NCBI GenBank assembly: GCA_963757945.1
Contig: CAVWTN010000002.1
Location: 458,262-522,261 of the forward strand
Direction: 5' to 3'
From: Vulcanimicrobiota bacterium
GTDB lineage: Bacteria > Vulcanimicrobiota > Vulcanimicrobiia > Vulcanimicrobiales > Vulcanimicrobiaceae
DNA: 64,000 bases
A program made the translations under genes and the position numbers. Under the pieces are notes generated by a model. It was not told the origin of the DNA and did not search any database. It was given only the letters and a program-made list of their open reading frames with translations. Below, one piece after another: positions 26,626 to 57,760 of the stretch (position 1 is its first letter; each line of letters opens with the position of its first letter).

Positions 26626-27495
26626 TCAGCTTCGCCGCAGCGCGAGCGCGAGCAACGACGGCGTCGTCCCGATCTTGCCGAACTCCCACAGGTCGATCGC
26701 GTCGACGGCGACCTTCGCGGCGCGCAGCAGCGGGGGGACCGCGCGGAAACGGAGGTTCCCGATCACGCGCCCGCGCCCGAGCGCGAGCACGCCGGCGCCG
26801 TAATCGTCGCCGCGCGGCACTTCGATCGCCGTCAACCCGGCAAACGCGGCGCCCTGCACGAGCCCGGGCGAATACAGGATCGCTTCCTCATCGACGAAGG
26901 CGGCGACGGCCCGCAAGCGCACGGCATCCGCGGCTACGCCGACCTCGACGATGCGCCGCCCGATCCCGCGCGCGTACGCGGCGAGCTGCTCGCGCCCATG
27001 GGCGTTGCCGCGCCGCCCCGTCGGGATTCCCCCGGCCGATGGCCGTGCTTCACTGACACCGAGGTACAGCGCTTCCGGGCCGAGCAGCACGTCGCCGCCG
27101 TCGAGCAATCCGGGCGCTTCGATCCGGCCGACGATCGGCACGCCCGCCGTCGCCAGCGCCGCTTCGACGGCCGCGAGTTCGGTTCGCCGGGCTACGTCGC
27201 TGGGCCGCATCAAGAACGCGCCGCCCGGGAAGACGACCGCGAGATCCGCGACCGCGCTCGCATTCGGCAAGCCGGGCGTTTGGTCGATCGCGATCGTTTG
27301 GACGCCGTTGTAGTGCAGCGTGCCTTCGAAGATCGCGAATTGCTCGAGCGCGCGCGCGAAGATCGTCCCCGATTCGCCCTGAACGGGCTTCGCCCGTTCG
27401 ATCGCAGCCGACGGCCGCACGAGCAGCGCCGCCGCCAAGCGTGCGCCGTCATCTTCGACAAAGGGGCCCTTGATCTCGTTCGCTATGCTGACCAC
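26626..27495 (-). CDS. amidinotransferase-superfamily protein (dimethylarginine dimethylaminohydrolase-like)
   Basis: DDAH/arginine-deiminase-fold similarity across the length. The usual C-terminal catalytic Cys appears to be replaced (…GKIGTTPSLL), so it may be non-catalytic. Confidence 0.5.
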   Translation of the reverse strand: MVSIANEIKGPFVEDDGARLAAALLVRPSAAIERAKPVQGESGTIFARALEQFAIFEGTLHYNGVQTIAIDQTPGLPNASAVADLAVVFPGGAFLMRPSDVARRTELAAVEAALATAGVPIVGRIEAPGLLDGGDVLLGPEALYLGVSEARPSAGGIPTGRRGNAHGREQLAAYARGIGRRIVEVGVAADAVRLRAVAAFVDEEAILYSPGLVQGAAFAGLTAIEVPRGDDYGAGVLALGRGRVIGNLRFRAVPPLLRAAKVAVDAIDLWEFGKIGTTPSLLALALRRS

Positions 27496-27550: not shown

Positions 27551-27952
27551 TCAGCCTGAGCTTGCCGAAGGGGTCGAAGGGTCTGCACCGATGTCGAGGG
27601 TGATTCGGCCGCTTCCGTTGCAGGTGCAGCAGGCGAGGCCGCTGCCGGTGGCGCGAGCGATTCCGGAGCCTCGGCAGTTCGGGCAGGCTTGGGTTCGCTT
27701 CGGCACGCTGTGAACGCCGCGTCCGCCGCAGGCGCTGCAGGTCAAGCGCTTTTGCGGCTGCACGGCGGTCCCGCGGCACTCACCGCAGCGCACGAATGGT
27801 GCGCGCACGAGAATCATGCCCTCGCCGTGGCAGATCTCGCAGCGCGAGAGCGGGGAAAGGACCCCGAATGGATCCTTTCCCGTCCCGCGGCAGAACGCGC
27901 ACGCGACCTCATGGTACGCGGAGTTCGGGGTCCGGTTAGGCTGGATTGCCAC
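27551..27952 (-). CDS. DnaJ-type zinc-finger protein (six CxxCxGxG motifs), gas-vesicle-cluster associated, paralog 1
   Basis: 133 aa with repeated CxxC(x)GxG motifs ([48 protein letters not shown]). Paralog of 29608..29985. Confidence 0.6.
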   Translation of the reverse strand: MAIQPNRTPNSAYHEVACAFCRGTGKDPFGVLSPLSRCEICHGEGMILVRAPFVRCGECRGTAVQPQKRLTCSACGGRGVHSVPKRTQACPNCRGSGIARATGSGLACCTCNGSGRITLDIGADPSTPSASSG

Positions 27953-27964
27953 GCACGACCTCCA

Positions 27965-28636
27965 CTACGCGAGTCGAACTTGTTGCGTTGCGCTATCCGC
28001 CACGAGGTAGGTCAGCTTCTCCAACTTCTCGACTTGGTCGAAGAGCGAGAGAGCCTCGTGGTAATGCCCCTCGTTTTCGAAGACGTGCCCGAGTTCAAGG
28101 AGCCGATCGAACGCCTCGCGCCCCTCGATGCTGCCGGGATAGCGCCGCAGGAGCCGCGTGTATCCGTCGATCGCGGTGTGGATCAGCCCTTGTTCGTCCC
28201 AGGCTTGCGCTGCGCGAAGCAAGGCCACTCGGCCCGATGCCGCCGCGGCCAACTTCTGCAACGTGTGCAGGAACGAGGAATGACGTTCCGCCAGCGCCGT
28301 GCGAATTTCATCGTCCGACGCATAGACGCTGAAGGTCCCCGCGGGGAGCAACGTAAGGCGCCGCTGTAACGCGTCGACGACCCGGCCGTGATCGAACGTT
28401 ATCCGCCCGAGCCACGCGTCATCCTGGGCCAGCGTGCGCACGCGCTCCTGCGAAAATTCGTCGAGCGGAACGGCGCTGACGAGTGCGGCCAACTCGCCAT
28501 ACTCGATCGCGGTGAGCGGCGCCGATCCGTTGACGCCGAACGTGTCATCGGGCAGGCGGCTCTGGGCATCGGTCTGCTTCGCGATCCCGTAAAGGTACCA
28601 CCCGTGGTCCGGGGGCAAGCGGTGTTTCGTCATCAC
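27965..28636 (-). CDS. GvpL/GvpF-family N-terminal domain fused to a TPR-like C-terminal region
   Basis: N-terminal ~135 aa aligns with the gvpL at 31578..32423 (GHAWYLYGIAK…YGELAALVSAVPLDEF…FSVYASDD). The C-terminus diverges into TPR-like helices (AWDEQGLIHTAIDGYTRLLRRYPGS…GHYHEALSLFDQV). Confidence 0.65.
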   Translation of the reverse strand: MMTKHRLPPDHGWYLYGIAKQTDAQSRLPDDTFGVNGSAPLTAIEYGELAALVSAVPLDEFSQERVRTLAQDDAWLGRITFDHGRVVDALQRRLTLLPAGTFSVYASDDEIRTALAERHSSFLHTLQKLAAAASGRVALLRAAQAWDEQGLIHTAIDGYTRLLRRYPGSIEGREAFDRLLELGHVFENEGHYHEALSLFDQVEKLEKLTYLVADSATQQVRLA

Positions 28637-29031
28637 CGGCTCCCTCCGCGTGCGACGCCGGCTCGCCTGCGCGTGTAGCTGCTCCAGATGCGCGCCGTCT
28701 CGCTGCGTCGGCCGTGGAGGCCGCCGAGCAGACCGCGAACCTGCGCCCGGTTCTGTGCCGTTTCTGCCTCGAGCAGCGTTCGCTGGCGCTGTGCCGTTGC
28801 CGCAAGCTCGCGGCCGAAACCCGCGAGCAGCGTGGCGACCGCCCGGCTACGGACGGTCACGTCCTCTCTGAGCGCCTCTCGCAGCGAGGCATCCTCGCGC
28901 AGGCGCTCGCGCCCCAGCAGCTCGAGCTTTTGCGCGATCGCCGCCCGTCTGGCTGCAATCTCTAGCGAGCGTTCATCGTGCGCCTGCTCCAACCGATCGG
29001 TCAGCGCGCGCACGTCCGCGACTATTGCCAT
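28633..29031 (-). CDS. predicted coiled-coil gas-vesicle-associated protein ('GvpX' paralog 1, family not recognised)
   Basis: 132 aa, helical and Arg/Glu/Ala-rich. The first ~100 aa are paralogous to 37420..38013 (MAIVADVRALTDRLEQ…). ATG at 29031; the ORF's upstream extension is junk. Immediately downstream of gvpA1. Confidence 0.5.
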   Translation of the reverse strand: MAIVADVRALTDRLEQAHDERSLEIAARRAAIAQKLELLGRERLREDASLREALREDVTVRSRAVATLLAGFGRELAATAQRQRTLLEAETAQNRAQVRGLLGGLHGRRSETARIWSSYTRRRAGVARGGSR

Positions 29032-29168
29032 GTCGATCTCCCGAATCATTGAAGAAAAACAGTGCGAGGGGGCGCCGGCGTCTTTGCCGCCGATCGCTAC
29101 GCACGACCGGCATGCAAGCCCCGGCGCCCTTCGCTCGAGCTCGATCGACGAGCTCTTTGCCGCTCGTG

Positions 29169-29399
29169 CTATGCGGCGGCCGCCTGCGGTGCGGCGACGG
29201 ATGCCGTGAGCCCGATCGCTTCGGCATACTTGAGGTAGGTTTCGACCGACGCGACGACGGCGCGGATTTCGATCGCGAGCAATTCGATGCCGACCAGCGA
29301 CACGCGCACCCATGCGTCGATGACGAGGCCCTTGTCCAAGATGCGATCGACGACTTCCACGAGGCTCGACGAGCCGATTGCCTTCTCTACTTGTGCCAT
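29169..29399 (-). CDS. gvpA: gas vesicle structural protein GvpA (copy 1)
   Basis: 76 aa: [64 protein letters not shown]… is the canonical GvpA core. Confidence 0.92.
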
Positions 29400-29494
29400 T
29401 CTCAGCCAAGCTCCCTGTGACGAATAGCGGCCTTGACGCATTGCCGAAGCCGCTGGTTGGGGTCCCATCGCCATCCTATCCGGCGCTCGAGAAC

Positions 29495-29543
29495 TCAACA
29501 ACACTCGATCGAGGTACTGCGGACTATCCGGACGGATACAAAT
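29495..29543 (-). promoter_or_regulatory. conserved upstream element of gvpA copy 1 (CTCGATCGAG palindrome + TATCCG-N2-CGGATA inverted repeat)
   Basis: About 48 bp nearly identical to 38510..38558 upstream of gvpA copy 2, while the flanking intergenic DNA diverges. Confidence 0.5.
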
Positions 29544-29607
29544 CCGTGCGCCCTTCGAACCACGCGGGGCGCACGCCGCAGCGCGGGATCGCGCCTGGCT
29601 GGCGGCG

Positions 29608-29985
29608 TTACGAAGCCGAACCGCTATGCAACGTCACTCTGCCGCTGCCGGTACAGGTGGAACACGACAGATCGATCTCGCTTTCCGGATCGACGCCCGT
29701 ACCTTTGCAAACCGGGCACGCTTGGTTGTTCTTCGAGACGCTCTGCACGCCGCGCCCTCCGCACGCACTGCACGTCAGACGCTTGTGCGGCTGCGCGCCG
29801 GTACCATGGCATTCGCCGCAGCGCACGAACGGCACGTGCACGATGTTCTTGCCGACGCCCTGGCACGTCTCGCAGCGCGAAAGGTCGGAAAGGAGCCCGA
29901 ACGGATCCTTACCCGTACCGCTACAGAATGCGCATTCGACGGCCTGTTCGCCTGGTTTCGGAACTGGATTAGGCATTGGCTCCAA
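29608..29985 (-). CDS. DnaJ-type zinc-finger protein (CxxCxGxG repeats), paralog 2
   Basis: 125 aa ([48 protein letters not shown]). About 50% identical to 27551..27952. Overlaps the gvpJ stop. Confidence 0.6.
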
Positions 29986-30280
29986 TCGCCTCCTCTACGC
30001 GTGCGAGTCTTTCTTTGAGTAAAAGGTTATCGGCCTCGAGACTTTCGGCGCGCGAAACCAGCGCCGAGTCGCGCTCCCACCAGTTGATCCCCATCTCTTT
30101 CGCCTTGTCCACCGATGCGATCAACAAGCGCACCTTGATGCTCAACAACTCCACCTGAACGAGGGAGATGGTGATGTCCCCGGCGATGACGATGCCCTTG
30201 TCGAGCACGCGCTCGAGGATGTCGGCCAAGTTCGTGGTCTGGATTGCACTGGCGACGCGCCGGTCGCTTGCGTTCTGCAT
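29969..30280 (-). CDS. gvpJ: gas vesicle protein GvpJ (GvpA-family)
   Basis: NLADILERVLDKGIVIAGDITISLVQVELLSIKVRLLIASVDKAKEMGI. RBS GGGAGAAGG upstream. Confidence 0.8.
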   Translation of the reverse strand: MQNASDRRVASAIQTTNLADILERVLDKGIVIAGDITISLVQVELLSIKVRLLIASVDKAKEMGINWWERDSALVSRAESLEADNLLLKERLARVEEAIGANA

Positions 30281-30303
30281 GTTCCCTTACCTTCTCCCTG
30301 TTA

Positions 30304-30633
30304 TCACAGGAGATTGCCCAGCGGTCCCAAGTTGAGATTCAAATCCTCGCCTTCCAGACCGAACCGTTCTTTGAGCTCGATCATCGCTTGCTCGAGGTTC
30401 ATGAACGTCTCGCCCATCCGCTCGACCTCGTCCGCCGTCACGCTCTCCGCTTCGATGCGCTTGATGGCCTGACGCTCGAGCAACTGGCGCAACAACTCGA
30501 TGATCGTGAGCACGAGCTTTGCCAGCCCTTGCTCCACGCGCTCCGGGTCGATATCGAGCCGATCCTCCGCGGCCCGCGCCGCGGACGACGGCGCGATCGT
30601 GTCGGGGAGATCGGTCGCATCATTCACGTTCAT
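30304..30633 (-). CDS. gvpK: gas vesicle protein GvpK
   Basis: 109 aa. EQGLAKLVLTIIELLRQLLERQAIKRIE…LNLNLGPLGNLL is the GvpK signature. Confidence 0.85.
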   Translation of the reverse strand: MNVNDATDLPDTIAPSSAARAAEDRLDIDPERVEQGLAKLVLTIIELLRQLLERQAIKRIEAESVTADEVERMGETFMNLEQAMIELKERFGLEGEDLNLNLGPLGNLL

Positions 30634-31409
30634 CGCTGTACCCTCGCCGCTATGCGGGCTCGCGAACGGTCCTCCGCCACGAAGCTGTACGGCGCGGACG
30701 GGCCGCTCAGCACCAGATCGAGTTCCGGGCGCTCGCTGCACAGGCTCGCAAACGCCCTGCGGAATCCCGGCACCGCGGCCGGATCCACGAGATACGCGGC
30801 GCTGCAGGCGATGCGCTCGCTCGCCAGCTCGGACCAACGCACTTCGCGCGCGTGGGGAGAGAGGCGCTCGTCGATGCCGTCCCGCGCCGCGCGGAGGCGC
30901 TCTTCGAGAATCTGCGCCTTCAAATGCACGCGCATCAGCCCGCGCAAGTAACGAGCGCCCGCACCGGAACCGCGAATGTTCGGCCCTGCAGGCAAAGCTG
31001 CCGCCGGCGCGCTTGCGCCGTCCCGCAGAACGGAAGACGTGGTCAGGATCGCCAGATCCAACTCCGCCATGGGGCCCAAGCGCGCCAAGTCCTCGTGCAA
31101 CTGCTCGCGCTGCCGTGCGAGCGTTTCGACGACGGCCGTCTCGCCGCGCAGTACCGTGCCGAACCGGGCAGGAAGCGCGGAGTTCCGCTGGCGTACCGCC
31201 TCGACGACGGCTTGGTGAGCGAAGAGATGCTTGGCCGTATGCTCCCAACGTTCCTGACTCACCGCGCCGGTGACGGCCGCAAGGCCTGCGCCGCGGACCA
31301 AAGCCAACGCCTCACCCTCCACGCCGCGCACGCCGGGCGCCAGCTCGGCCTGCGGCGGAACGATCGCGTAGACGTACAGGTATCGTTCGCTACGGTCGAG
31401 CGTTTCCAC
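30630..31409 (-). CDS. gvpF: gas vesicle protein GvpF/GvpL family
   Basis: N-terminal YLYVYAIV… and GvpF-family architecture. GTG start; ATGA-type overlap with gvpK. Confidence 0.75.
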   Translation of the reverse strand: METLDRSERYLYVYAIVPPQAELAPGVRGVEGEALALVRGAGLAAVTGAVSQERWEHTAKHLFAHQAVVEAVRQRNSALPARFGTVLRGETAVVETLARQREQLHEDLARLGPMAELDLAILTTSSVLRDGASAPAAALPAGPNIRGSGAGARYLRGLMRVHLKAQILEERLRAARDGIDERLSPHAREVRWSELASERIACSAAYLVDPAAVPGFRRAFASLCSERPELDLVLSGPSAPYSFVAEDRSRARIAARVQR

Positions 31410-31581
31410 GGTATTGCGGCTCCCCTACGCACAGCGCAATCACGAGTTGCAGGTCGAGGAAGAGCAGGTCGACGCCGGCGACCGAGATCGTCAGATTCCC
31501 CGCCAGCACGAGGCCCCGATCGAGGACCCGGTCGAGCAGATCGAGGAGGGTGACCTCGTCCGGCTCTGCAACGGCGCTCAT
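31390..31581 (-). CDS. gvpS: small GvpA-family gas vesicle protein (GvpS/GvpM-like)
   Basis: 63 aa. TLLDLLDRVLDRGLVLAGNLTISVAGVDLLFLDLQLVIA is a GvpA-fold core. Confidence 0.7.
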   Translation of the reverse strand: MSAVAEPDEVTLLDLLDRVLDRGLVLAGNLTISVAGVDLLFLDLQLVIALCVGEPQYRGNARP

Positions 31582-32423
31582 CGGTGCACGCTCCCTTGCT
31601 CTTCGATGGATTCAGGATCGACGAAATTGTACGGCGGCCACGGCCCGCTATATTCGACCTTGATCTCCGGGCGCAGTTGACCGATGCGCTCCACCATCTC
31701 CAAGAACGCACCTTGCTGCGCGCGCCGGACCAAGAATGTCCGGCGCAGGATCGCGAGCGTCGCTTCGCCGTCCGTGAGGCGCAGGGGCGAGAGCTCCCCG
31801 CCGGCGACCGCGAGCGAACGCAGTTCCGCGTACGCCTGGTCGCTCACGCCTGCGATCGTGTCTTCGACGTGACGCTTCAAGAGGGTCGCGATTTGGCGAT
31901 CCACGAGATAGGCGCGGCCGGCACTCGACGACGCCCGCTTCTCCAGCAACTGCGCGATCTGGGGGACGGAGCGGGAAAGGCTCTTGCGCAGGAGCGTCCG
32001 ATCGAACGTCAGCCGCACCTCGAACTCGTCGCAGCCCTCCAACCGTTGCAGGATGCGTAAGATCGAGGACTGACTTTCCGCAAGCGCCGCAAGAATGTCG
32101 TCATCGCTCGCATAGACGCTGAACAACCGCGCGGGCACGATGCCCAGGCGCTGCTGCAGCCCTTCGACGACCCGTTCGTGCTCGGAGGCGACCTGCCCGA
32201 GCCACGTATCGTCTTGCGCGAGCGAGCGCACGCGCTCCGCTTCGAAATCGGCAAGCGGAACGGCGCTCACGAGTGCGCTTAACTCCCCATAACTGATCGC
32301 GCCGACGAGCGTCGCGCCGTCCACGCCGAGGATCGCGAGCGGCAGCCGGCTGCGAACATCGCTCTCCTTCGCGATTCCGTACAGATACCACGCATGCCCG
32401 GGCGGCAATACTCGATCGATCAT
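31578..32423 (-). CDS. gvpL: gas vesicle protein GvpL/GvpF family
   Basis: 282 aa, WYLYGIAKE…GELSALVSAVPL. Start at ATG 32423, which overlaps the gvpG stop by 1 nt. Confidence 0.8.
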   Translation of the reverse strand: MIDRVLPPGHAWYLYGIAKESDVRSRLPLAILGVDGATLVGAISYGELSALVSAVPLADFEAERVRSLAQDDTWLGQVASEHERVVEGLQQRLGIVPARLFSVYASDDDILAALAESQSSILRILQRLEGCDEFEVRLTFDRTLLRKSLSRSVPQIAQLLEKRASSSAGRAYLVDRQIATLLKRHVEDTIAGVSDQAYAELRSLAVAGGELSPLRLTDGEATLAILRRTFLVRRAQQGAFLEMVERIGQLRPEIKVEYSGPWPPYNFVDPESIEEQGSVHR

Positions 32424-32671
32424 CAGAGCGACGCCTTGTATTCGCGAATCTCGTTCAAGCGCTGCAAGATGCTCGCTTCCGCCTCGCTGTACTCCGCTTC
32501 CGAGATCTCGCCCAAATCGAGTTGCAAGCTCAGCCGCATCAGCGCGCTCTCGAGGCGGCCTTCGTCGTACATCTCCGCGTCGACCGCCTCTTTGATCTTC
32601 TCGAACACAAAGAGCAGCCCGCGGGCCGGTCCCGCAACCGGCAGACACACGAGATCGGTGACCAATCCCAT
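32423..32671 (-). CDS. gvpG: gas vesicle protein GvpG
   Basis: 83 aa. MGLVTDLVCLPVAGPARGLLFVFEKIKEAVDAEMYDE…LDLGEISEAEYSEAEASIL is GvpG-like. RBS AAGGAGAG. Confidence 0.7.
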   Translation of the reverse strand: MGLVTDLVCLPVAGPARGLLFVFEKIKEAVDAEMYDEGRLESALMRLSLQLDLGEISEAEYSEAEASILQRLNEIREYKASL

Positions 32672-32673
32672 CG

Positions 32674-33477
32674 CTAGCTCTCCTTTTCCCAGGCGAGATC
32701 GACGAAATCGAACGGCGGCAGAGGCCCGACGTACTTCAGAATCAGCCGTTCGGCATTCCGCTCGGCGATCGCGTTGACGGCCGCGTCGAAGCGCGCTTCG
32801 CTTGCTTTCTCCACGAGAAACGCCGCGTTGACGATCATCATGTCCGTGAGCAGGGCGTTCGTCTTCATCTCCACGCACAGCGGTGCAAGCTCGCTCTCGA
32901 TCTCCTCGGCGTCGCGCGTGCGCAGCAGGGCCATGGCCTGCTCCACCAATTGCCCGAGCCGGATCTGCTCGAAGTGGCCCGACCCCGATACCATCTCGTC
33001 ACGCAACGAGCGGATGTCGTCCCGCGCGGCCACGATCTCGGCGAACACGCGCTCCCGTTTCCAAAGCACCTTGAGCCCGAGCTCGACTCGCCCGCGGACA
33101 TGCGCCAAGATCGCGAGCAGCTCGTCGCGCCGCGCTTCAAGAACCTGCTCGCCGACACGCGCGTCGCTCGCGGAGATCAATCCGAATTGCGCGGGGATCA
33201 CCTCGCTGAACGTGAGGATCTCTTCGAGAACGCGCTGATGCGTCAGGAGGTTCTCGCGGCTAACGTCGTAGCGAGCTGCCGGAGAGTCGCTGACGATCGC
33301 CGCGAGCTCGCCGGCCCGGACGGCGCGCACCGCGTCGCCGCGCCCGCCGACCGCGGCCGCGGCGAACGCACCGCGCCCTTCGAGCGCGGCTGCGGGAACG
33401 ATGCCGTAGACATAAACGCCGGCCGCGCCCGCGGACGTTCCCGCCTCGCTCGCGGCGAGCTTCTCGTCACTCACCAT
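32674..33477 (-). CDS. gvpF: gas vesicle protein GvpF
   Basis: 267 aa. GVYVYGIVPAAA…LAAIVSDSP… is GvpF-family. Start at ATG 33477. Confidence 0.8.
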   Translation of the reverse strand: MVSDEKLAASEAGTSAGAAGVYVYGIVPAAALEGRGAFAAAAVGGRGDAVRAVRAGELAAIVSDSPAARYDVSRENLLTHQRVLEEILTFSEVIPAQFGLISASDARVGEQVLEARRDELLAILAHVRGRVELGLKVLWKRERVFAEIVAARDDIRSLRDEMVSGSGHFEQIRLGQLVEQAMALLRTRDAEEIESELAPLCVEMKTNALLTDMMIVNAAFLVEKASEARFDAAVNAIAERNAERLILKYVGPLPPFDFVDLAWEKES

Positions 33478-35659
33478 GGGCCGCCTCTTCCGCCTGGAGG
33501 GCCGCGACGTGCGCTTCGCGCGCCTGCACGAACGCGTTCTCGAAGTGACGCCGCTCGATGACGAACGGCGTGAACGCCGCCTGGGGTTCGCGCTCGATCG
33601 ATTCGCGGATCGCGAGCATCGCCGCACGCCGGCAAAGCCCCTCGAGATCCGCGCCGACGAGGCCCTCGGTGCTCGCTGCGATGCTCTTGAGGTCCACGTC
33701 TGCACTCAACTGCCGGCCGCGCGTGTGCACGCCGAGGATCGACAGGCGCGCAGCCCGGTCCGGGGCGTGCAACGGGAGAATCACGTCGAAGCGCCCGGCG
33801 CGCAACAGCGCGGGATCGATCATGTCCGGGCGATTGGTCGCGCCGAGAATGACGACGCCGCGCAATTCCTCGATGCCGTCGAGTTCGGCGAGGAACTGCC
33901 CCACGACACGTTCCGCAACGTGCCCCCCGCCGCTCCCGTCGCCGCGGCGCGGCACGAGCGCGTCGATCTCGTCGAAGAAGACCATGCACGGCGCGGCTTG
34001 CCTGGCCTTGTGGAAGACTTCGCGGATGCCTTTCTCCGACTCGCCGACCCACTTCGAGATCAGCGCGGGCCCCTTGACCGAGATGAAATTGATGCCGCTC
34101 TCCGCCGCGGCCGCCCTCGCCACGAGCGTCTTTCCCGTTCCCGGCGGCCCGGTCAGGAGCAACCCTTTCGGTGGATTCACCTTGGCAAACGCAAAGCGGT
34201 CGGCATACGCGAGCGGCCAGGCGACCATCTCACGAATGACTTCCTTCACCTCGTCGAGCCCGCCGACGTCGTCCCACTTCACGTCCGGCAGTTCGGTGAA
34301 GACCTCGCGAATGGCCGAGGGCTCCGTCTCCGTGAGCGCATCCGTGAAGTTCCGCATCGAGATTTCGAGCTTGAGCAGCTCCTCGTAGGGAAGCTGCGGG
34401 TTCTTGAAATCGATCGTCGGGAGAGCGTTTCGCAAGCAGCTCATCGCGGCTTCGCGGCACACCCCGGCGAGATCGGCGCCGACGAAGCCATGCGTGATCG
34501 CCGCCAGCTTCTCGAGGTCCACATCCTTCGCGAGCGGCATGCCGCGCGTGTGAATCTGCAAGATCTCCAGACGCCCCACCTTGTCGGGGACGAGGACCGA
34601 GATTTCGCGATCGAAGCGCCCCGGCCGGCGCAGCGCCGGGTCGATGCTATCCGGAATGTTCGTCGCGCCGATGACGACGACGTGCCCGCGGGACTCGAGG
34701 CCGTCCATCAGGGTCAGGAGCTGCGCGACCACGCGCTTCTCGACTTCCCCTTGGACCGCTTCGCGCTTGGGCGCGATCGCGTCGATCTCGTCGATGAAGA
34801 CGATGCTCGGCGCGTGGTTCTGCGCCTCATCGAAGAGCTTGCGCAGATTTGCTTCCGACTCGCCGTAGAACTTGTGGATGATCTCCGGACCGTTGACGTG
34901 CACGAAGTGCGCGGAGGTTTCGGCTGCGACCGCTCGCGCGATCAGCGTCTTGCCGCACCCGGGCGGCCCGTAGAGCAAAACTCCCTTGGGCGGCTCGATG
35001 CCCAGACGCGCGAAGACCTCCGGGTAGCGCATCGGCAACTCGATCATCTCGCGAATCCGCGCGATCTCTCTCCCCAGGCCACCCACGTCCTCGTAGGACA
35101 CTCCCGGCGCGCGGCCTCCCAGGGTGGCATCTCCGGCGATGCGCACGACGGTGGCTCGATCGACGTAGACGGGACCGGACGGGCTCGTGTCCTTGACGAT
35201 GAAATCGACCGCCCGCGAACCGAACAGCGCGACGCGCACGCGATCGCCCACCACGAGCGGCACGTTCTCGAGCAGCGTGCCGATGTAGCGCGAATCTTGC
35301 GCGCCGAGCGCCTTGGCGGTGACGACCGGCGTGAGCGCGAGACTCGCCGCGCTGTGGTTGCCCGCCTTCTTGAGTTGCACGCTATCGTCGAGCGCCGCCT
35401 GCGCGTTCTCCCGGATGATCCCGTCGATCTGGACCAGACCCTTGCCGCGCTCGCCGGGGAACGCCGGCATGATCCGCGCCGTGGTGTTGCGTTTGCCTGC
35501 GATCTCCACGATGTCGCCGATCGCGCAACCGAGACGCTCGATATCCGCCGGATCGACGCGCGCGATCGCCCGGCCGACGTCTTTCGGAAGCGCCTCCGCA
35601 ACGCGCAGCGCGAGCGCCGCCCGCTCGCCTACCGCGCCGCTTGCTCCGGGTTGACTCAT
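33467..35659 (-). CDS. CDC48/VAT-like double-ring AAA+ ATPase (N-domain + D1 + D2) embedded in the gvp operon
   Basis: 730 aa. CDC48-type N-domain, two Walker A sites (GPPGCGKT, GPPGTGKT), two Walker B sites (IVFIDEID, MVFFDEID), and a second-region-of-homology with Arg fingers. Confidence 0.85.
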   Translation of the reverse strand: MSQPGASGAVGERAALALRVAEALPKDVGRAIARVDPADIERLGCAIGDIVEIAGKRNTTARIMPAFPGERGKGLVQIDGIIRENAQAALDDSVQLKKAGNHSAASLALTPVVTAKALGAQDSRYIGTLLENVPLVVGDRVRVALFGSRAVDFIVKDTSPSGPVYVDRATVVRIAGDATLGGRAPGVSYEDVGGLGREIARIREMIELPMRYPEVFARLGIEPPKGVLLYGPPGCGKTLIARAVAAETSAHFVHVNGPEIIHKFYGESEANLRKLFDEAQNHAPSIVFIDEIDAIAPKREAVQGEVEKRVVAQLLTLMDGLESRGHVVVIGATNIPDSIDPALRRPGRFDREISVLVPDKVGRLEILQIHTRGMPLAKDVDLEKLAAITHGFVGADLAGVCREAAMSCLRNALPTIDFKNPQLPYEELLKLEISMRNFTDALTETEPSAIREVFTELPDVKWDDVGGLDEVKEVIREMVAWPLAYADRFAFAKVNPPKGLLLTGPPGTGKTLVARAAAAESGINFISVKGPALISKWVGESEKGIREVFHKARQAAPCMVFFDEIDALVPRRGDGSGGGHVAERVVGQFLAELDGIEELRGVVILGATNRPDMIDPALLRAGRFDVILPLHAPDRAARLSILGVHTRGRQLSADVDLKSIAASTEGLVGADLEGLCRRAAMLAIRESIEREPQAAFTPFVIERRHFENAFVQAREAHVAALQAEEAAHGE

Positions 35660-36156
35660 TTCTTCTTCTCGAGGCGAACCTCGAGAATGGCATTCTTAAA
35701 GCTTCGCTGCAGGTTCGACGCATCGACCTGCGCCGGCAACAGGAGTTCCTTGGAGTATTTCCGTTCGCGACCGGCGGCCTCGAGCGTCAGGATGTCGCCC
35801 TCAACTTCGACCTTGATGTCTTCGTCCGTGACGCCCGGCAGCTCCGCCACGACCAAGACATGATCGGCTTCGTCGAAAATGTCGACGAGCGGCTCGCGCA
35901 CCTCGGAAACTTCGGGCCCGTGTGCCGTGGGGCGGATGTTGCCGAACTGCTCGATGACCGGAACGCCGCCGAGCGACTTGATCGACACGCCGTAGAGGCC
36001 GCGCAATTCACGCGGACCGCTCAGCTCGCCGCTGCGCCGGATTTCCTTGCCCTCGCCGAGCTCACCGAGCAGATCGATGAAACCGCCCAGCCCTTTGAGG
36101 ATCTCGCCGAGCCCGAGATCCGTGCGCGGATCGCTTGTCTTCCGTTTGCTGCTCAT
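35656..36156 (-). CDS. gvpH: Hsp20/alpha-crystallin family protein (GvpH-like)
   Basis: 166 aa with an alpha-crystallin domain (ADHVLVVAELPGVTDEDIKVEVEGDILTLEAAG). ATGA overlap with the CDC48-like gene. Confidence 0.75.
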   Translation of the reverse strand: MSSKRKTSDPRTDLGLGEILKGLGGFIDLLGELGEGKEIRRSGELSGPRELRGLYGVSIKSLGGVPVIEQFGNIRPTAHGPEVSEVREPLVDIFDEADHVLVVAELPGVTDEDIKVEVEGDILTLEAAGRERKYSKELLLPAQVDASNLQRSFKNAILEVRLEKKK

Positions 36157-36159
36157 CTT

Positions 36160-36459
36160 CTAGTACTCCAACGTCAGCGCATGGCGGTCACTCGCGGCAG
36201 GCGGGGCTTCGATGCCGCCGGCGATCGGGCGCGCGATCGGCCGTGATTCGAGGTCGGCGATCTGCCCGTCGACCTCGCGCAAACGCGCCTCGACGGTTTG
36301 CTGTCTTTTCCGCGCGAGCTCGACTTCGCGCACGAGCCGCCGGCGTTCGCCCGCCAGCCGCTGGAGTTGCAATGCACGGCTCACTTCGCTGCGCAACCCG
36401 ATCGACGGGGGCAGCCCGCGAAACGACCGCACGTCGTGCATGGTGCTAGGTTGCCCCAT
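36160..36459 (-). CDS. small predicted coiled-coil protein in the gvp operon (unknown)
   Basis: 99-aa ORF tightly packed between gvpN (2-nt gap) and the Hsp20 gene, with RBS GGAG. Helical Arg/Glu-rich composition. It could be spurious in this high-GC DNA. Confidence 0.4.
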   Translation of the reverse strand: MGQPSTMHDVRSFRGLPPSIGLRSEVSRALQLQRLAGERRRLVREVELARKRQQTVEARLREVDGQIADLESRPIARPIAGGIEAPPAASDRHALTLEY

Positions 36460-36461
36460 GG

Positions 36462-37391
36462 TTACTTCCGCCTTTTCGGACTGCCGGTTTCCCGGATGCG
36501 CCGCCGCGACTTTTCAGATCGATCGGAGCCGCCGCTGACGAGCACATCAGCGCACGTCTGCTCGAACGCCGGCTCTCCGGGAACCGCGCGTCCACCGGAG
36601 ATCGACAAGACCTTGGCGATCATGATGGAGCGGCGCAGCGTGGACCCTACGTGGCCGGACTCATCCCTCCAGTGATGCACGACGTCGACGATCCGTTCGG
36701 CATCCTCGAGGGGAACGCCGGACTTCGCTCGAGTGATCTCGATCTCCGTATCGCGATCGAAGCCGCTCATGTCGATCGTGATCATCCGGTCGAGCAGTGC
36801 ATCCTGCGCGCCGTGCACGCCCACGTACTCGTCGGGATTCGACGTGAAGATCGCGGAGAACGCGGGGTGAACCTTCAGATACTGCACGCCGTTCCTGCTC
36901 GTGGGCAACATGAGCAGCTTCTCTTCCAACACGGCGAGCAGGACGTTGTTCGCCTCCGCGCGCGAGCGCGAGAACTCGTCGTAAAGCAGCGTCAGCCCTT
37001 CGCGGCAGGCGACCGTCAAACGATTGTCGACCCACTGTTGCGTCACGTCCTCCTCGGTCTTGAGGACCGAGTGGACGAAGTTGTCGACGACCCTGCGGCG
37101 GCGATAGCCGGATCGCCCGCCGACAAGGTCCGATGTGCCGAACTCGTCGTCACCGCACAGCAACGCCAGCGGCCGGCCCAGGTGATGCGCGACGTGCAGC
37201 GCCAAGGTCGTTTTGCCCGAGCCGGACGGTCCGCGGAAATGCACCGGATAGCCGGCCCGGATATACGTGAGGGCCCGTGCGGTCAGGGCCCGGATGAAGT
37301 CGGTCTCAACGAAATCCGCGCGTGGCCGGCTCGTGATGACCGAACTCCCTCCGACCGCAGGCGCGCTACCGTTCAACGTGACGCTCGCCAA
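36462..37391 (-). CDS. gvpN: gas vesicle protein GvpN (MoxR-like AAA+ ATPase)
   Basis: Walker A HFRGPSGSGKTTLA, Walker B LLYDEFSR. TTG start at 37391 preceded by AGGAGG at 5-nt spacing. Confidence 0.85.
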   Translation of the reverse strand: MASVTLNGSAPAVGGSSVITSRPRADFVETDFIRALTARALTYIRAGYPVHFRGPSGSGKTTLALHVAHHLGRPLALLCGDDEFGTSDLVGGRSGYRRRRVVDNFVHSVLKTEEDVTQQWVDNRLTVACREGLTLLYDEFSRSRAEANNVLLAVLEEKLLMLPTSRNGVQYLKVHPAFSAIFTSNPDEYVGVHGAQDALLDRMITIDMSGFDRDTEIEITRAKSGVPLEDAERIVDVVHHWRDESGHVGSTLRRSIMIAKVLSISGGRAVPGEPAFEQTCADVLVSGGSDRSEKSRRRIRETGSPKRRK

Positions 37392-37419
37392 GGCGCCCTC
37401 CTCTTCTTATCGAGTGCGA

Positions 37420-38013
37420 TCAAGTTGCAAAGTAAATTTCGCGAACGTCGTCCTTACGGGCGCGGTTCTGCTCGATGAGTCCATCGATCGCATGACCGAC
37501 TCCCGCGCGCGATGCGTGGAAGTGACGCTCGATGTCGTGGATCTTCACGCCGTTTGGATGGCCGGCGAGGAACGTGAAGACCTTGTCCTGCAGAGCGGTT
37601 GAATGATGCTGGACGCTTGGTTTGGGGCCATCTTGCGTCACCGCTCTGAAGGCGTAGTAATTGCCCCAGATCCCGGCCGTCTCCACGCGATTGACGTGGA
37701 AGGCGTCAAGGAGCCGGCTGACCTGTGCCCGGTTCTCCGCCGCGTCGGCCTTGAGCTGCGCGTTCTGCTTCTTCGCCGTCGCAGCAAGCTCCCGATCGAA
37801 ACCGGCAAGCTGATCGGCGACCGACCGGCTACGGGCGACGACCTCGGTATGGAGCGCCGCTCGCAGCTCCGTCTGTTCTTGAGTCCGCTCGCGTTGGAAG
37901 CGCGAAAGCTTCTGCGAAATCGCCTGTCGTCTCGCCGCGATCTCTTGGAACCGCTCTTCGTGCGATTGCTCCAACCGATCCGTCAGTGCGCGCACGTCTG
38001 CAACTATTGCCAT
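37420..38013 (-). CDS. predicted coiled-coil gas-vesicle-associated protein ('GvpX' paralog 2) with extra C-terminal winged-helix-like domain
   Basis: 198 aa. The N-terminal ~110 aa are paralogous to 28633..29031 (MAIVADVRALTDRLEQSHEER…). C-terminal ~70 aa extension (…VFTFLAGHPNGVKIHDIERHFHASRAGVGHAIDGLIEQN…). RBS GGGGGAGA. Confidence 0.5.
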   Translation of the reverse strand: MAIVADVRALTDRLEQSHEERFQEIAARRQAISQKLSRFQRERTQEQTELRAALHTEVVARSRSVADQLAGFDRELAATAKKQNAQLKADAAENRAQVSRLLDAFHVNRVETAGIWGNYYAFRAVTQDGPKPSVQHHSTALQDKVFTFLAGHPNGVKIHDIERHFHASRAGVGHAIDGLIEQNRARKDDVREIYFAT

Positions 38014-38151
38014 CTGGATCTCCCCCGCTTGTTGCGGCGTTGCGAGAGGGGCGCCGGCGGCCTTCACGCTGCTCTCTGGGCGCGAGCAGCGTGTAGACCC
38101 CAGCGCCCTCCCTCAAGCTCGATATAGTCGAGCCTATCTCTACCGCTCGCG

Positions 38152-38382
38152 CTACGCGGCGACGGGCTGGGGTGCTGCGACCGATGCCGTAAGCCCGATC
38201 GCTTCGGCATACTTGAGATACGTCTCGACCGAGGCCACGACGGCGCGGATCTCGATAGCGAGCAACTCGATGCCGACGAGCGACACGCGCACCCATGCAT
38301 CGATGACAAGGCCCTTGTCCAGGATACGATCGACGACTTCCACGAGGCTCGATGAGCCGATTGCCTTCTCTACTTGTGCCAT
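38152..38382 (-). CDS. gvpA: gas vesicle structural protein GvpA (copy 2)
   Basis: 76 aa. Identical to copy 1 except for 2 C-terminal residues (…APQPVAA vs …APQAAAA); DNA about 88% identical, mostly synonymous changes. Confidence 0.92.
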
Positions 38383-38478: not shown

Positions 38479-38558
38479 CTACGATGCATCGTAGTCGTAC
38501 GGCAGCGGCACAACAACACTCGATCGAGGTAGCGCGAGCTATCCGAACGGATACAATC
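38479..38558 (-). promoter_or_regulatory. gvpA copy-2 upstream region: 16-bp perfect palindrome CTACGATGCATCGTAG (38479..38494) plus conserved CTCGATCGAG / TATCCG-N2-CGGATA element (38510..38558)
   Basis: The conserved element is shared with 29495..29543. The 16-bp palindrome is unique to copy 2. It lies between the RR stop and gvpA2. Confidence 0.5.
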
Positions 38559-57499: not shown

Positions 57500-57586
57500 G
57501 TGGTGCGCGAGACTGGACTCGAACCAGCACGCCCTTGCGGGCGCTAGCCCCTCAAGCTAGTGCGTCTACCAATTCCGCCACTCGCG
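57500..57586 (-). tRNA. tRNA-Leu (anticodon GAG), CCA encoded
   Basis: Minus-strand sequence GCGCGAGTGGCGGAATTGGTAGACGCACTAGCTTGAGGGGCTAGCGCCCGCAAGGGCGTGCTGGTTCGAGTCCAGTCTCGCGCACCA folds as a class-II tRNA with a long variable arm and anticodon loop TTGAGGG. Confidence 0.85.
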
Positions 57587-57760
57587 CACGGGGGCCCAAA
57601 GCTTGGGCGCGGGAAAGCGCCAAAGCGATTAACCCGCGTATGGTATCGTATCGGCCGACGCCGTGCAAGACACGCCGCGGGGTATCCCGCACGGGGCAGC
57701 TATCCCCGGCGACGGGCGTGATTGACAGGCTGCGGCGGGGGGTGGTACCGTCGGGAGCGT

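Follow-up and report, generated by a model that had tools for sequence, protein, structure and literature searches.

Gas-vesicle (gvp) gene clusters have been described from Halobacterium (gvpACNO/gvpDEFGHIJKLM), Anabaena (gvpA-C-N-J-K-F-G-V-W), B. megaterium (gvpA-U) and Serratia sp. 39006. The major shell protein GvpA has an intrinsic tendency to aggregate and is proteotoxic if assembly factors are not there beforehand (PMC12848028). In haloarchaea, GvpH prevents aggregation of GvpM, and GvpF/L bind GvpA-family proteins (PMC9501494). An Hsp20 and an ArsA-type ATPase were reported in 2010 in the gvp clusters of Polaribacter irgensii, Pelodictyon luteolum and Geobacter uraniireducens, in a paper that does not mention a CDC48, a zinc-finger protein or the X family described below (PMC2963123). 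Furthermore, hsp20 was found beside gvp genes in Ca. Hakubella in 2020, in a paper whose gas-vesicle passages are silent on CDC48 (PMC7325909). Here we analyse a gvp cluster in a 64-kb stretch of contig CAVWTN010000002.1 from a Vulcanimicrobiota bacterium (the window, numbered from its first letter). Like the canonical clusters, it holds the full core set of gvp genes and an Hsp20-fold protein with a marginal match to GvpH, and like those of haloarchaea it has gvpA first, followed by a structured intergenic region. Unlike the canonical clusters, it adds a CDC48/VAT-type unfoldase, zinc-finger proteins (ZnF) with six CxxCxGxG-type motifs, a small tetratricopeptide-repeat (TPR) component and a second mini-operon (A1-X1-L/TPR-ZnF1), and it has a protein family, here called X, instead of a recognisable GvpC. 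The core is ordinary; the conserved unfoldase/holdase module and the X family are uncharacterised.

The cluster comprises 18 closely packed minus-strand genes at positions 27551-38382. An earlier, sequence-only reading of the window had listed these genes with the same order and coordinates, which were borne out when open reading frames (ORFs) were traced from position 38382 down. Its assignment of the Gvp families A, J, S, K, G, N and F/L held as well, all of them scoring above the Pfam or NCBIfam thresholds in searches with hidden Markov models (HMMs; Table 1), and the profile searches agreed with it on the CDC48-type double-AAA+ protein, the Hsp20 and the two CxxCxGxG zinc-finger proteins. 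The core assembly set (A, N, F, G, L, S/J and K) is complete. Our confidence that this is a gas-vesicle cluster is very high; it looks functional, and the actual production of vesicles is predicted from the genes.

We scanned for relatives of the CDC48 protein, taking one genome per species. The best 80 matches came from 80 loci, which were probed by local tblastn with all 18 window proteins (related loci and contigs that were compared with the window carry labels of the form L0xx). Among these best 80 matches, every one of the 28 bacterial loci, whose CDC48 is 56-66% identical to that of the window, carried gvp genes, in contrast to none of the 52 archaeal loci (50-56% identity) when these were searched by tblastn. 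Hsp20 was present in 26 of the 28 bacterial loci and ZnF in 19. The bacterial loci belong to Chloroflexota, Actinomycetota, Desulfobacterota, Nitrospirota, Cloacimonetes, Bacteroidota, Planctomycetota, Thermotogae and one alphaproteobacterium, and 11 phylum-level groups are reached once L084 (Atribacteria) and L088 (the Firmicute Desulfofundulus sp. TPOSR) are added. Gene order is also kept. The metagenome contig L086 reads A-X-ZnF-N-(3 small ORFs)-Hsp20-CDC48-F-G-L-S-F/L-K-J and is almost collinear with the window, L088 shows CDC48-F-G-L-S-F/L-K-J in the order of the window, and a collinear gvp cluster was found in L084 by an independent homologue look-up. Two close relatives of Chloroflexota type, L089 and L090, have collinear clusters with CDC48 identities of 83% and 69%, respectively; the CDC48 proteins nearest to that of the window (70-85%) come from metagenome-assembled genomes with a Chloroflexota annotation, and the CDC48 homologue of Ca. 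Hakubella is 63% identical to that of the window. In many phyla the unfoldase/chaperone genes stay linked to gvp, so that their vicinity is not a matter of chance, and we have high confidence that the cluster class is real and widespread. The sequence-only reading had proposed that the cluster has its own chaperone set, which the linkage of Hsp20 and ZnF across phyla upholds. It had also called this variant unusual; that part has to be amended, as the gene-neighbourhood comparison shows a widespread type, although not one already characterised.

Enzymes of the VAT/Cdc48/p97 family are segregases, which unfold proteins and pull subunits from stable assemblies, and a C-terminal HbYX motif docks many archaeal Cdc48s on the 20S proteasome. 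The window protein contains CDC48_N (PF02359, 84 bits), CDC48_2 (PF02933, 45.6 bits), two AAA and two AAA_lid_3 domains (Pfam), passes the subfamily model TIGR01243, and has the archaeal unfoldase VAT as its closest solved structure (5g4f, E = 3e-220). It shares with VAT of Thermoplasma acidophilum and the archaeal Cdc48s the order N domain (double-psi barrel and beta-clam)-D1-D2, about 50-56% identity to the archaeal Cdc48s, and every ATPase motif, with Walker A at 231 (GPPGCGKT) and 504 (GPPGTGKT) and Walker B at 286 (IVFIDE) and 559 (MVFFDE). The pore loops are aromatic in both rings (KFYGESE at 263 in D1, KWVGESE at 536 in D2), as in the archaeal enzymes, the D2 loop being identical, and as expected of an enzyme that threads its substrates. 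Unlike these, the window protein is bacterial and gvp-linked, belongs to a separate clade and has no HbYX or penultimate-Tyr tail. Its C-terminus reads ...EEAAHGE, without HbYX, and a count of C-termini found a penultimate Tyr in 0 of 29 gvp-linked CDC48s versus about 19 of 52 archaeal ones. Because a proteasome-docking tail is missing, the sequence points to a stand-alone unfoldase/segregase, and its client would presumably be a specific organelle protein, not general proteasome substrates. In a neighbour-joining tree, drawn without bootstrap values and with a very short branch bringing in L048, a single split separated the 29 gvp-linked CDC48s, the window's included, from the 52 archaeal ones, and the gvp-linked proteins appear to form one clade. 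The CDC48 gene shares 4 bp with the Hsp20 gene and 11 bp with gvpF and is predicted to be translationally coupled to both.

Cpa of actinobacteria is reportedly a Cdc48-like double-ring AAA+ protein as well, and is said to interact with the proteasome. Going by the description of Cpa, the window protein is set apart from it by the absence of a docking tail, by passing TIGR01243 and by its gvp linkage across phyla. Two longer CDC48 homologues, P0043 (1210 aa) and P0116 (1229 aa), have about 500 additional amino acids with intein/LAGLIDADG domains (PF14890, PF14528); the CDC48 match in L036:398-3481 spans 3 kb, and all three are probably intein-containing CDC48 genes.

The Hsp20 of the window marginally passes the GvpH model PF05455 (24.3 bits, cutoff 22) in the same region that matches PF00011, and it scores slightly under the cutoff of the NCBIfam model for archaeal Hsp20 (137.1 bits, cutoff 140). 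Across phyla, the gvp-linked Hsp20s keep an N-terminal extension of about 80 residues (GLGG.FKG...DL...KGVYGF...FGNI...REP..D.FDE), and a conserved extension of this kind is unusual for small heat-shock proteins (sHSPs). In two archaeal loci, L031:303-2957 and L035:9548-12148, the gene immediately upstream of CDC48, in the same orientation, encodes an Hsp20, and the surroundings are free of gvp genes. Because the two genes adjoin in these loci, the Hsp20-CDC48 pair seems to predate its recruitment to gvp clusters, in keeping with a holdase/unfoldase partnership that already existed. In the Bacteroidota loci and in Desulfofundulus, the Hsp20 and CDC48 genes are separated by that of an ArsA/Get3-type ATPase (GGKGGVGKT, about 315 aa; L013:8935-9930, L018:8993-9931 and L088:9001-9948), whereas the window has no ArsA and its Hsp20 gene overlaps CDC48 directly. 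With their Hsp20 and ArsA-type ATPase, the clusters of PMC2963123 probably belong to the same broad class, for which the sampled Bacteroidota loci and Desulfofundulus show the arrangement Hsp20-ArsA-CDC48.

ZnF2 has six strict CxxCxGxG motifs, and ZnF1 six CxxC motifs of which five are strict CxxCxGxG. The 12 Cys are invariant in 20 sequences of the family, which has a signature of its own, and three Zn(Cys)4 centres are predicted. In Pfam searches neither ZnF1 nor ZnF2 matched the J-domain (PF00226); with 122-133 aa, they consist of the Cys-rich repeats only. An assignment as DnaJ/Hsp40 was ruled out, as this would call for a J-domain with an HPD motif. The motifs are shared with the cysteine-rich (CR) domain of DnaJ, which has four of them and not six. 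An AlphaFold2 (AF2) model of ZnF2 had a mean predicted local distance difference test (pLDDT) score of 86.9. The fold search against the PDB returned no significant global match (best E = 0.1), and its weak matches were all DnaJ CR domains, the Rubisco assembly chaperone BSD2 or anti-TRAP. BSD2, which acts in plant Rubisco assembly, is likewise a small stand-alone ZnF protein without a J-domain, and the ZnF genes of the window stand among those for one large assembly. They differ from both DnaJ CR domains and BSD2 in their signature and in the lack of a significant global structural match; a chaperone role is predicted. A word-index search found 19 relatives, and all ZnF homologues whose context was examined lie within gvp clusters. 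In addition, a DnaJ J-domain (PF00226) forms part of a GvpL/F fusion protein in L084:9173-10195 (Atribacteria) and L090:6344-7426 (a Chloroflexota-type relative). With the ArsA-type ATPase of other loci and the N-terminal extension of the gvp-linked Hsp20s, this is a further independent recurrence of chaperone features in the class. These fusions suggest that Hsp70 may be recruited directly to gas-vesicle assembly in some lineages, and by their domain make-up they would independently tie GvpF/L of this cluster class to chaperone systems.

The third uncharacterised component is the X family. The sequence-only reading had noted an unknown paralogous pair, and indeed X1 and X2, which are 61% identical over residues 1-124, matched no family in Pfam or NCBIfam. 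A word-index search gave 5 relatives, and a profile search of 1.84 billion representatives gave 197 clusters of 64-434 aa, many of which match the profile in 2-5 stretches. Its members combine a helical stretch whose length varies, a linker rich in Pro and Ala and, at the C-terminus, a conserved domain of about 60 residues. The AF2 model shows residues 2-126 of X2 as a single unbroken helix, most of it with pLDDT above 90, and the C-terminal domain is of low confidence. Internal repeats were significant in 124 of 147 members, with a modal period of 33 residues (periods 33, 66 and 99 together make up 46 of the 124) and copy numbers between about 1 and more than 5; one relative carries an internal duplication of 66 residues. 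The self-score of X2 at lag 33 was +30 (null -55 +/- 19) and that of X1 +13, values that 0 of 1000 shuffles reached in either case. An X homologue directly follows gvpA in every locus where one was found, and the X proteins have a basic isoelectric point (pI), unlike the acidic GvpA.

In these respects X resembles GvpC: both are encoded directly downstream of gvpA and form long alpha-helices with a 33-residue periodicity and a repeat number that varies between species. One 33-residue GvpC repeat spans about four GvpA subunits (PMC10185304). The helical repeats followed by a globular C-terminal domain are also found in haloarchaeal GvpC (PMC9501494). The sequence-only reading had stated that no GvpC with 33-aa repeats is present. 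This stands as far as the Pfam model is concerned, but the periodicity and the gvpC position of X were missed.

Several results count against a GvpC-like role of X. The GvpC repeat PF01304 gave no match at E <= 1 for X1, X2 and six diverse family members. The X-repeat HMM (330 repeat instances) scored -6.9 bits on a GvpC proxy, and 237 of 300 shuffles did at least as well; the proxy itself reaches 249 bits with PF01304 and corresponds to no exact database entry. Homology between X and GvpC, which a resemblance by eye (AFH..ET, F-D/H-K/R-E-L) had brought up, was therefore rejected, the X-repeat HMM doing no better than on shuffles. The global hydrophobic moment of the X1/X2 helix was not above that of shuffles, whereas that of the GvpC proxy was, and global amphipathicity of the X helix was rejected as not significant. 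Moreover, the C-terminal domain of X2 and most members gave repeated winged-helix matches below threshold, in contrast to the zinc-finger C-terminal domain of GvpC, and could mean DNA binding. X1 and X2 might instead be regulators that bind DNA or act as scaffolds, or GvpA partners of a chaperone-like kind, without ever ending up on the vesicle. The missing similarity to GvpC, the lack of a significant global hydrophobic moment, the winged-helix-like domain and a weak similarity between X1 and the small protein 'cc' of the cluster would agree with this. On the other hand, strong 33-residue repeats in variable copy number are typical of structural rulers and not of regulators, X1 has no C-terminal domain at all, the gene always follows gvpA, and in haloarchaeal GvpC, too, helical repeats are coupled to a globular domain at the C-terminus (PMC9501494). 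We regard a role away from the vesicle as doubtful. With moderate confidence, we consider X to be a GvpC-like design that does the same job, and we do not file it as a member of the GvpC family.

Taken together, we lean slightly towards an uncharacterised class of gvp cluster with a protein-quality-control module that is dedicated to the aggregation-prone GvpA-family proteins; the specific mechanism that follows has about an even chance of being right. GvpA, GvpJ and GvpS, which are very hydrophobic and aggregation-prone, would be captured by Hsp20 and ZnF acting as ATP-independent holdases. The CDC48/VAT-like hexamer would thread and unfold GvpA-family protein that is mis-assembled or aggregated, possibly including protein from collapsed vesicles. 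The unfolded protein would return to an assembly-competent pool, from which GvpN, GvpF/L, GvpG and GvpK would then build the shell, and the X proteins would most likely provide the external helical reinforcement that is the role of GvpC.

A number of points weigh against this dedicated module. The client of CDC48 is suggested by gene linkage. To our knowledge, the model gvp clusters of Anabaena, B. megaterium, Halobacterium and Serratia make vesicles without a CDC48, and CDC48 is therefore not universally required. ZnF is missing or undetected in 9 of the 28 loci, some of them on truncated contigs, and the composition of the module varies, as the window is without the ArsA that many relatives place between Hsp20 and CDC48. 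The linkage was counted among the best 80 matches, the tree has the weaknesses given above, and the operator proposed below goes by position and shape.

CDC48 might instead serve the regulated removal of vesicles, extracting GvpA from intact or collapsed shells for loss of buoyancy and recycling, with Hsp20 and ZnF receiving the subunits. Segregase activity in this enzyme family, intact pore loops and ATPase motifs would suit such a role, and the missing proteasome-docking motif fits recycling better than degradation. Dedicated gas-vesicle degradation was named as an open question in a 2024 review (PMC10903477). However, the CDC48 gene is, judging by its overlaps, translationally coupled to assembly genes in the gvpA operon and would be made during building, and the promoter scan of the cluster revealed no separate promoter or regulator for CDC48. 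We think regulated removal rather unlikely as the main function; it also overlaps the quality-control module proposed above, which already allows for recycling from collapsed vesicles.

A regulatory device comparable to GvpD, which acts on the activator GvpE, is a further alternative. Here CDC48 would switch gvp expression by unfolding or stripping off a transcription factor, with the winged-helix-like domain of X2 or the response regulator as possible targets. GvpD is an NTPase that has a repressing role (PMC9501494), X2 and most members of its family end in the domain with winged-helix matches below threshold, and regulators adjoin many clusters (the two-component pair of the window, a sigma-54 activator beside the cluster in L086, sigma-70 and GerE proteins in L090). 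These regulators vary by locus, though, whereas CDC48, Hsp20 and the GvpF/G/L/S/K/J block are constant and collinear. The constant partners, an sHSP and a holdase-type ZnF, suit a client that is prone to misfolding, and a double-ring unfoldase of 730 aa would be costly for the control of one factor. We hold this device to be improbable. That the chaperone genes are general stress genes hitch-hiking beside gvp without a vesicle-specific role, as the Hsp20-CDC48 pair of gvp-free archaea and the heat-shock link read into hsp20 near gvp genes in one paper (PMC7325909) might indicate, is highly improbable and poorly compatible with the linkage data, since the linkage is kept in 28 of 28 bacterial loci from many phyla despite shuffled surrounding gene order, the gvp-linked CDC48s have a clade and the gvp-linked Hsp20s a conserved N-terminal extension of their own, and the ZnF family has its own invariant signature, with all members looked up lying in gvp clusters.

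A bolder form of the quality-control module would be that at least 11 phylum-level groups share a gvp-dedicated VAT/CDC48, a specialised Hsp20 and a three-zinc holdase that extract, unfold and recycle GvpA, and that X is an independently evolved 33-residue ruler doing the job of GvpC. We consider this full statement unlikely as a whole.

The coordinates of all features are given in Table 1. Start codons were set by the overlap with the upstream gene and by the fit to the family profile, as several listed ORFs were overextended upstream in this DNA of 67% G+C, and the G+C content of the window (about 65-70%) fills mechanical ORF lists with spurious frames. After this choice, the junctions between genes measure -4, -11, +2, -1, -4, -20, -4, +23, -8, +2, +3, +28, -1 and +12 bp, and only three gaps are larger (A2-X2, 138 bp; A1-X1, 137 bp; ZnF2-gvpA1, 208 bp).

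Table 1. Features of the gas-vesicle cluster and its upstream region in the window. Score cutoffs in bits: PF00741, 25; PF00684, 32.7; PF00011, 20.8; PF05455, 22; PRK09371, 100; TIGR01243 (NCBIfam), 802.65.
Feature	Position	Strand	Evidence and remarks
Histidine kinase without sensor or membrane domain, 256 aa	39218..39988	-	HisKA_3 46 bits, HATPase_c 49.5 bits
NarL/LuxR-type response regulator, 218 aa	38565..39221	-	Response_reg 96 bits, GerE 55.5 bits
Palindrome TATCCG-NN-CGGATA, copy 1	38540..38553	.	Upstream of gvpA2, candidate operator
gvpA2, major shell protein, 76 aa	38152..38382	-	PF00741 61 bits; PRK09371 124 bits; 97% identical to A1
gvpA2-X2 intergenic RNA, very stable stem-loop	38014..38151	-	Minimum free energy (MFE) -79.5 kcal/mol
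X2, 197 aa, long helix and C-terminal winged-helix-like domain	37420..38013	-	Candidate GvpC analogue
gvpN, canonical gas-vesicle AAA+ ATPase, 309 aa	36462..37391	-	TIGR02640 equivalog 332.7 bits (cutoff 266.8); Pfam AAA_5
'cc', small basic helical protein, 99 aa, pI 10.9	36160..36459	-	Matches no family
Hsp20/alpha-crystallin sHSP, 166 aa, gvp-specific subfamily	35656..36156	-	PF00011 33 bits
VAT/CDC48-type double-ring AAA+ unfoldase, 730 aa	33467..35659	-	TIGR01243 908.9 bits
gvpF, 267 aa	32674..33477	-	PF06386 229 bits, full length
gvpG, 82 aa	32423..32671	-	PF05120 71 bits
gvpL, 281 aa	31578..32423	-	PF06386 164 bits, full length
gvpS, GvpA-family minor protein, 63 aa	31390..31581	-	PF00741 56 bits
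Third GvpF/L paralogue, 259 aa	30630..31409	-	PF06386 160 bits, full length
gvpK, 109 aa	30304..30633	-	PF05121 116 bits
gvpJ, GvpA-family minor protein, 103 aa	29969..30280	-	PF00741 64 bits
ZnF2, 122 aa, stand-alone six-motif CxxCxGxG protein	29608..29976	-	PF00684 52 bits
Palindrome TATCCG-NN-CGGATA, copy 2	29525..29538	.	Upstream of gvpA1, candidate operator
gvpA1, 76 aa, opens second transcription unit	29169..29399	-	PF00741 61 bits; PRK09371 124 bits
gvpA1-X1 intergenic RNA, stem-loop then U-run	29032..29168	-	MFE -71 kcal/mol
X1, 132 aa, pI 11.5, like X2 helical region without C-terminal domain	28633..29031	-	61% to X2 residues 1-124
GvpL-N-half/TPR fusion, 222 aa	27965..28633	-	PF06386 69 bits (positions 1-112 of 245) and TPR_6
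ZnF1, 133 aa, ZnF2 paralogue	27551..27952	-	PF00684 38 bits

All four genes of the second unit have a paralogue in the main operon. Besides the A and X pairs, ZnF1 and ZnF2 are 61% identical, and the L/TPR protein is 59% identical to GvpL over residues 6-138. The sequence-only reading had described the latter as a GvpL-TPR fusion; the match to the N-terminal half of PF06386 and to TPR_6 supports this, and its description can be made more precise. For the TPR half, L089 has a separate gene of 84 aa with 69% identity, and a similar small ORF occupies the matching slot in L090. The fusion consists of a duplicated N-terminal half of GvpL joined to a TPR protein that stands as a separate conserved gene in the close relative L089.

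Like X1 and X2, the 99-aa 'cc' protein matched no family in Pfam or NCBIfam. It is kept between gvpN and Hsp20 in L089 (65%, E = 1e-35) and L090 (37%, E = 7e-12), and the members of this family (94-99 aa; window 36160-36459, L089:1037-1321 and L090:2291-2584) share an N-terminal MHDVRS and a C-terminus ...T(L/V)EY. A relationship of 'cc' to X was set aside, as its weak match to X1 (E = 2e-5, without composition correction) probably reflects coiled-coil bias. Directly 3' of ZnF1 lies an ORF of 289 aa (26626-27495, minus strand) without a Pfam match; the neighbours of related clusters show no homologue of it, though no dedicated search was made.

Directly upstream of the cluster and on the same strand, outside the range covered by the sequence-only reading, we found genes for a histidine kinase and a response regulator. 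The kinase-regulator order is identical in the metagenome contig L002, which is itself identical to the window. This two-component pair probably belongs to the gas-vesicle system, and the response regulator probably controls both gvpA promoters. When the upstream regions of the two gvpA genes were aligned, a conserved 46-bp block holding a perfect palindrome was seen to precede both. Allowing at most 1 mismatch, the palindrome has two matches in the 64 kb, both in the gvpA upstream regions, where 0.10 would be expected by chance, and the stop codon of the response-regulator gene lies 12 bp upstream of the copy at 38540-38553. By its position and shape, the palindrome is a candidate operator for the NarL/GerE regulator. 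Because the same block precedes each gvpA and a NarL-type pair is adjacent, we infer two co-regulated units, which would be gvpA2-X2-N-cc-Hsp20-CDC48-F-G-L-S-F/L-K-J-ZnF2 and gvpA1-X1-(GvpL-N/TPR)-ZnF1.

The intergenic RNAs that follow both gvpA genes are predicted to be very stable (gvpA2-X2, z = -6.3; gvpA1-X1, z = -4.6), and for each of them 0 of 200 shuffles were as stable. They recall the haloarchaeal arrangement, in which a terminator lies between gvpA and gvpC (PMC9501494). The stem-loops may be attenuators that set the ratio of GvpA to the accessory proteins, or, in the case of gvpA2-X2, may stabilise the mRNA. Scans of the cluster for sigma-70 promoter and intrinsic terminator consensus sequences found none above chance, and Rfam searches of the whole window found no RNA family inside the cluster; the only Rfam match in the window is a tRNA gene at 57504-57587 (minus strand). 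In L090, a sigma-70 family factor gene (L090:3226-4092) lies within the gvp cluster between Hsp20 and CDC48, and a PAS/HD protein and a GerE response regulator are encoded just downstream of that cluster.

The sequence-only reading had called the cluster an undescribed variant. We found no description of a CDC48-type ATPase, of ZnF or of the X family as gas-vesicle components in the full-text literature, which leaves subscription journals mostly uncovered, and to this extent the claim stands. It does not hold for the Hsp20 and ArsA reported in 2010 or for the hsp20 reported in 2020. In a genome-mining study, Hurt et al. cloned gvp clusters of 23.4 kb from Desulfobacterium vacuolatum (FWXY01000008:1268-24724), which yielded vesicles in E. 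coli at 30 C, and of 12 kb from Desulfotomaculum acetoxidans (CP001720:3216181-3228274). Both clusters are large enough for these genes to be among their contents.

How GvpA is kept soluble and inserted in the growing shell, and whether cells dismantle or recycle their vesicles, are questions that the field regards as open (PMC10903477). A module that is wired into gvp operons across phyla offers concrete and testable candidates for both the solubility and the recycling of GvpA. In addition, the X family shows that helical repeats of 33 residues beside gvpA extend beyond what the Pfam GvpC model picks up. Heterologous expression of gas vesicles is limited by the proteotoxicity of GvpA (PMC12848028), and most mined gvp clusters fail in E. 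coli (PMC10344784); the dedicated chaperones of this cluster class could serve as expression helpers. With the quality-control module, a bacterial Cdc48-type ATPase would also gain a defined client; beyond archaea and eukaryotes, little is understood about this group. If the full statement with recycling of GvpA across phyla were true, this would be the first enzymatic turnover or repair system for gas vesicles, and for the first time a Cdc48-type machine of bacteria would have a defined client in an organelle.

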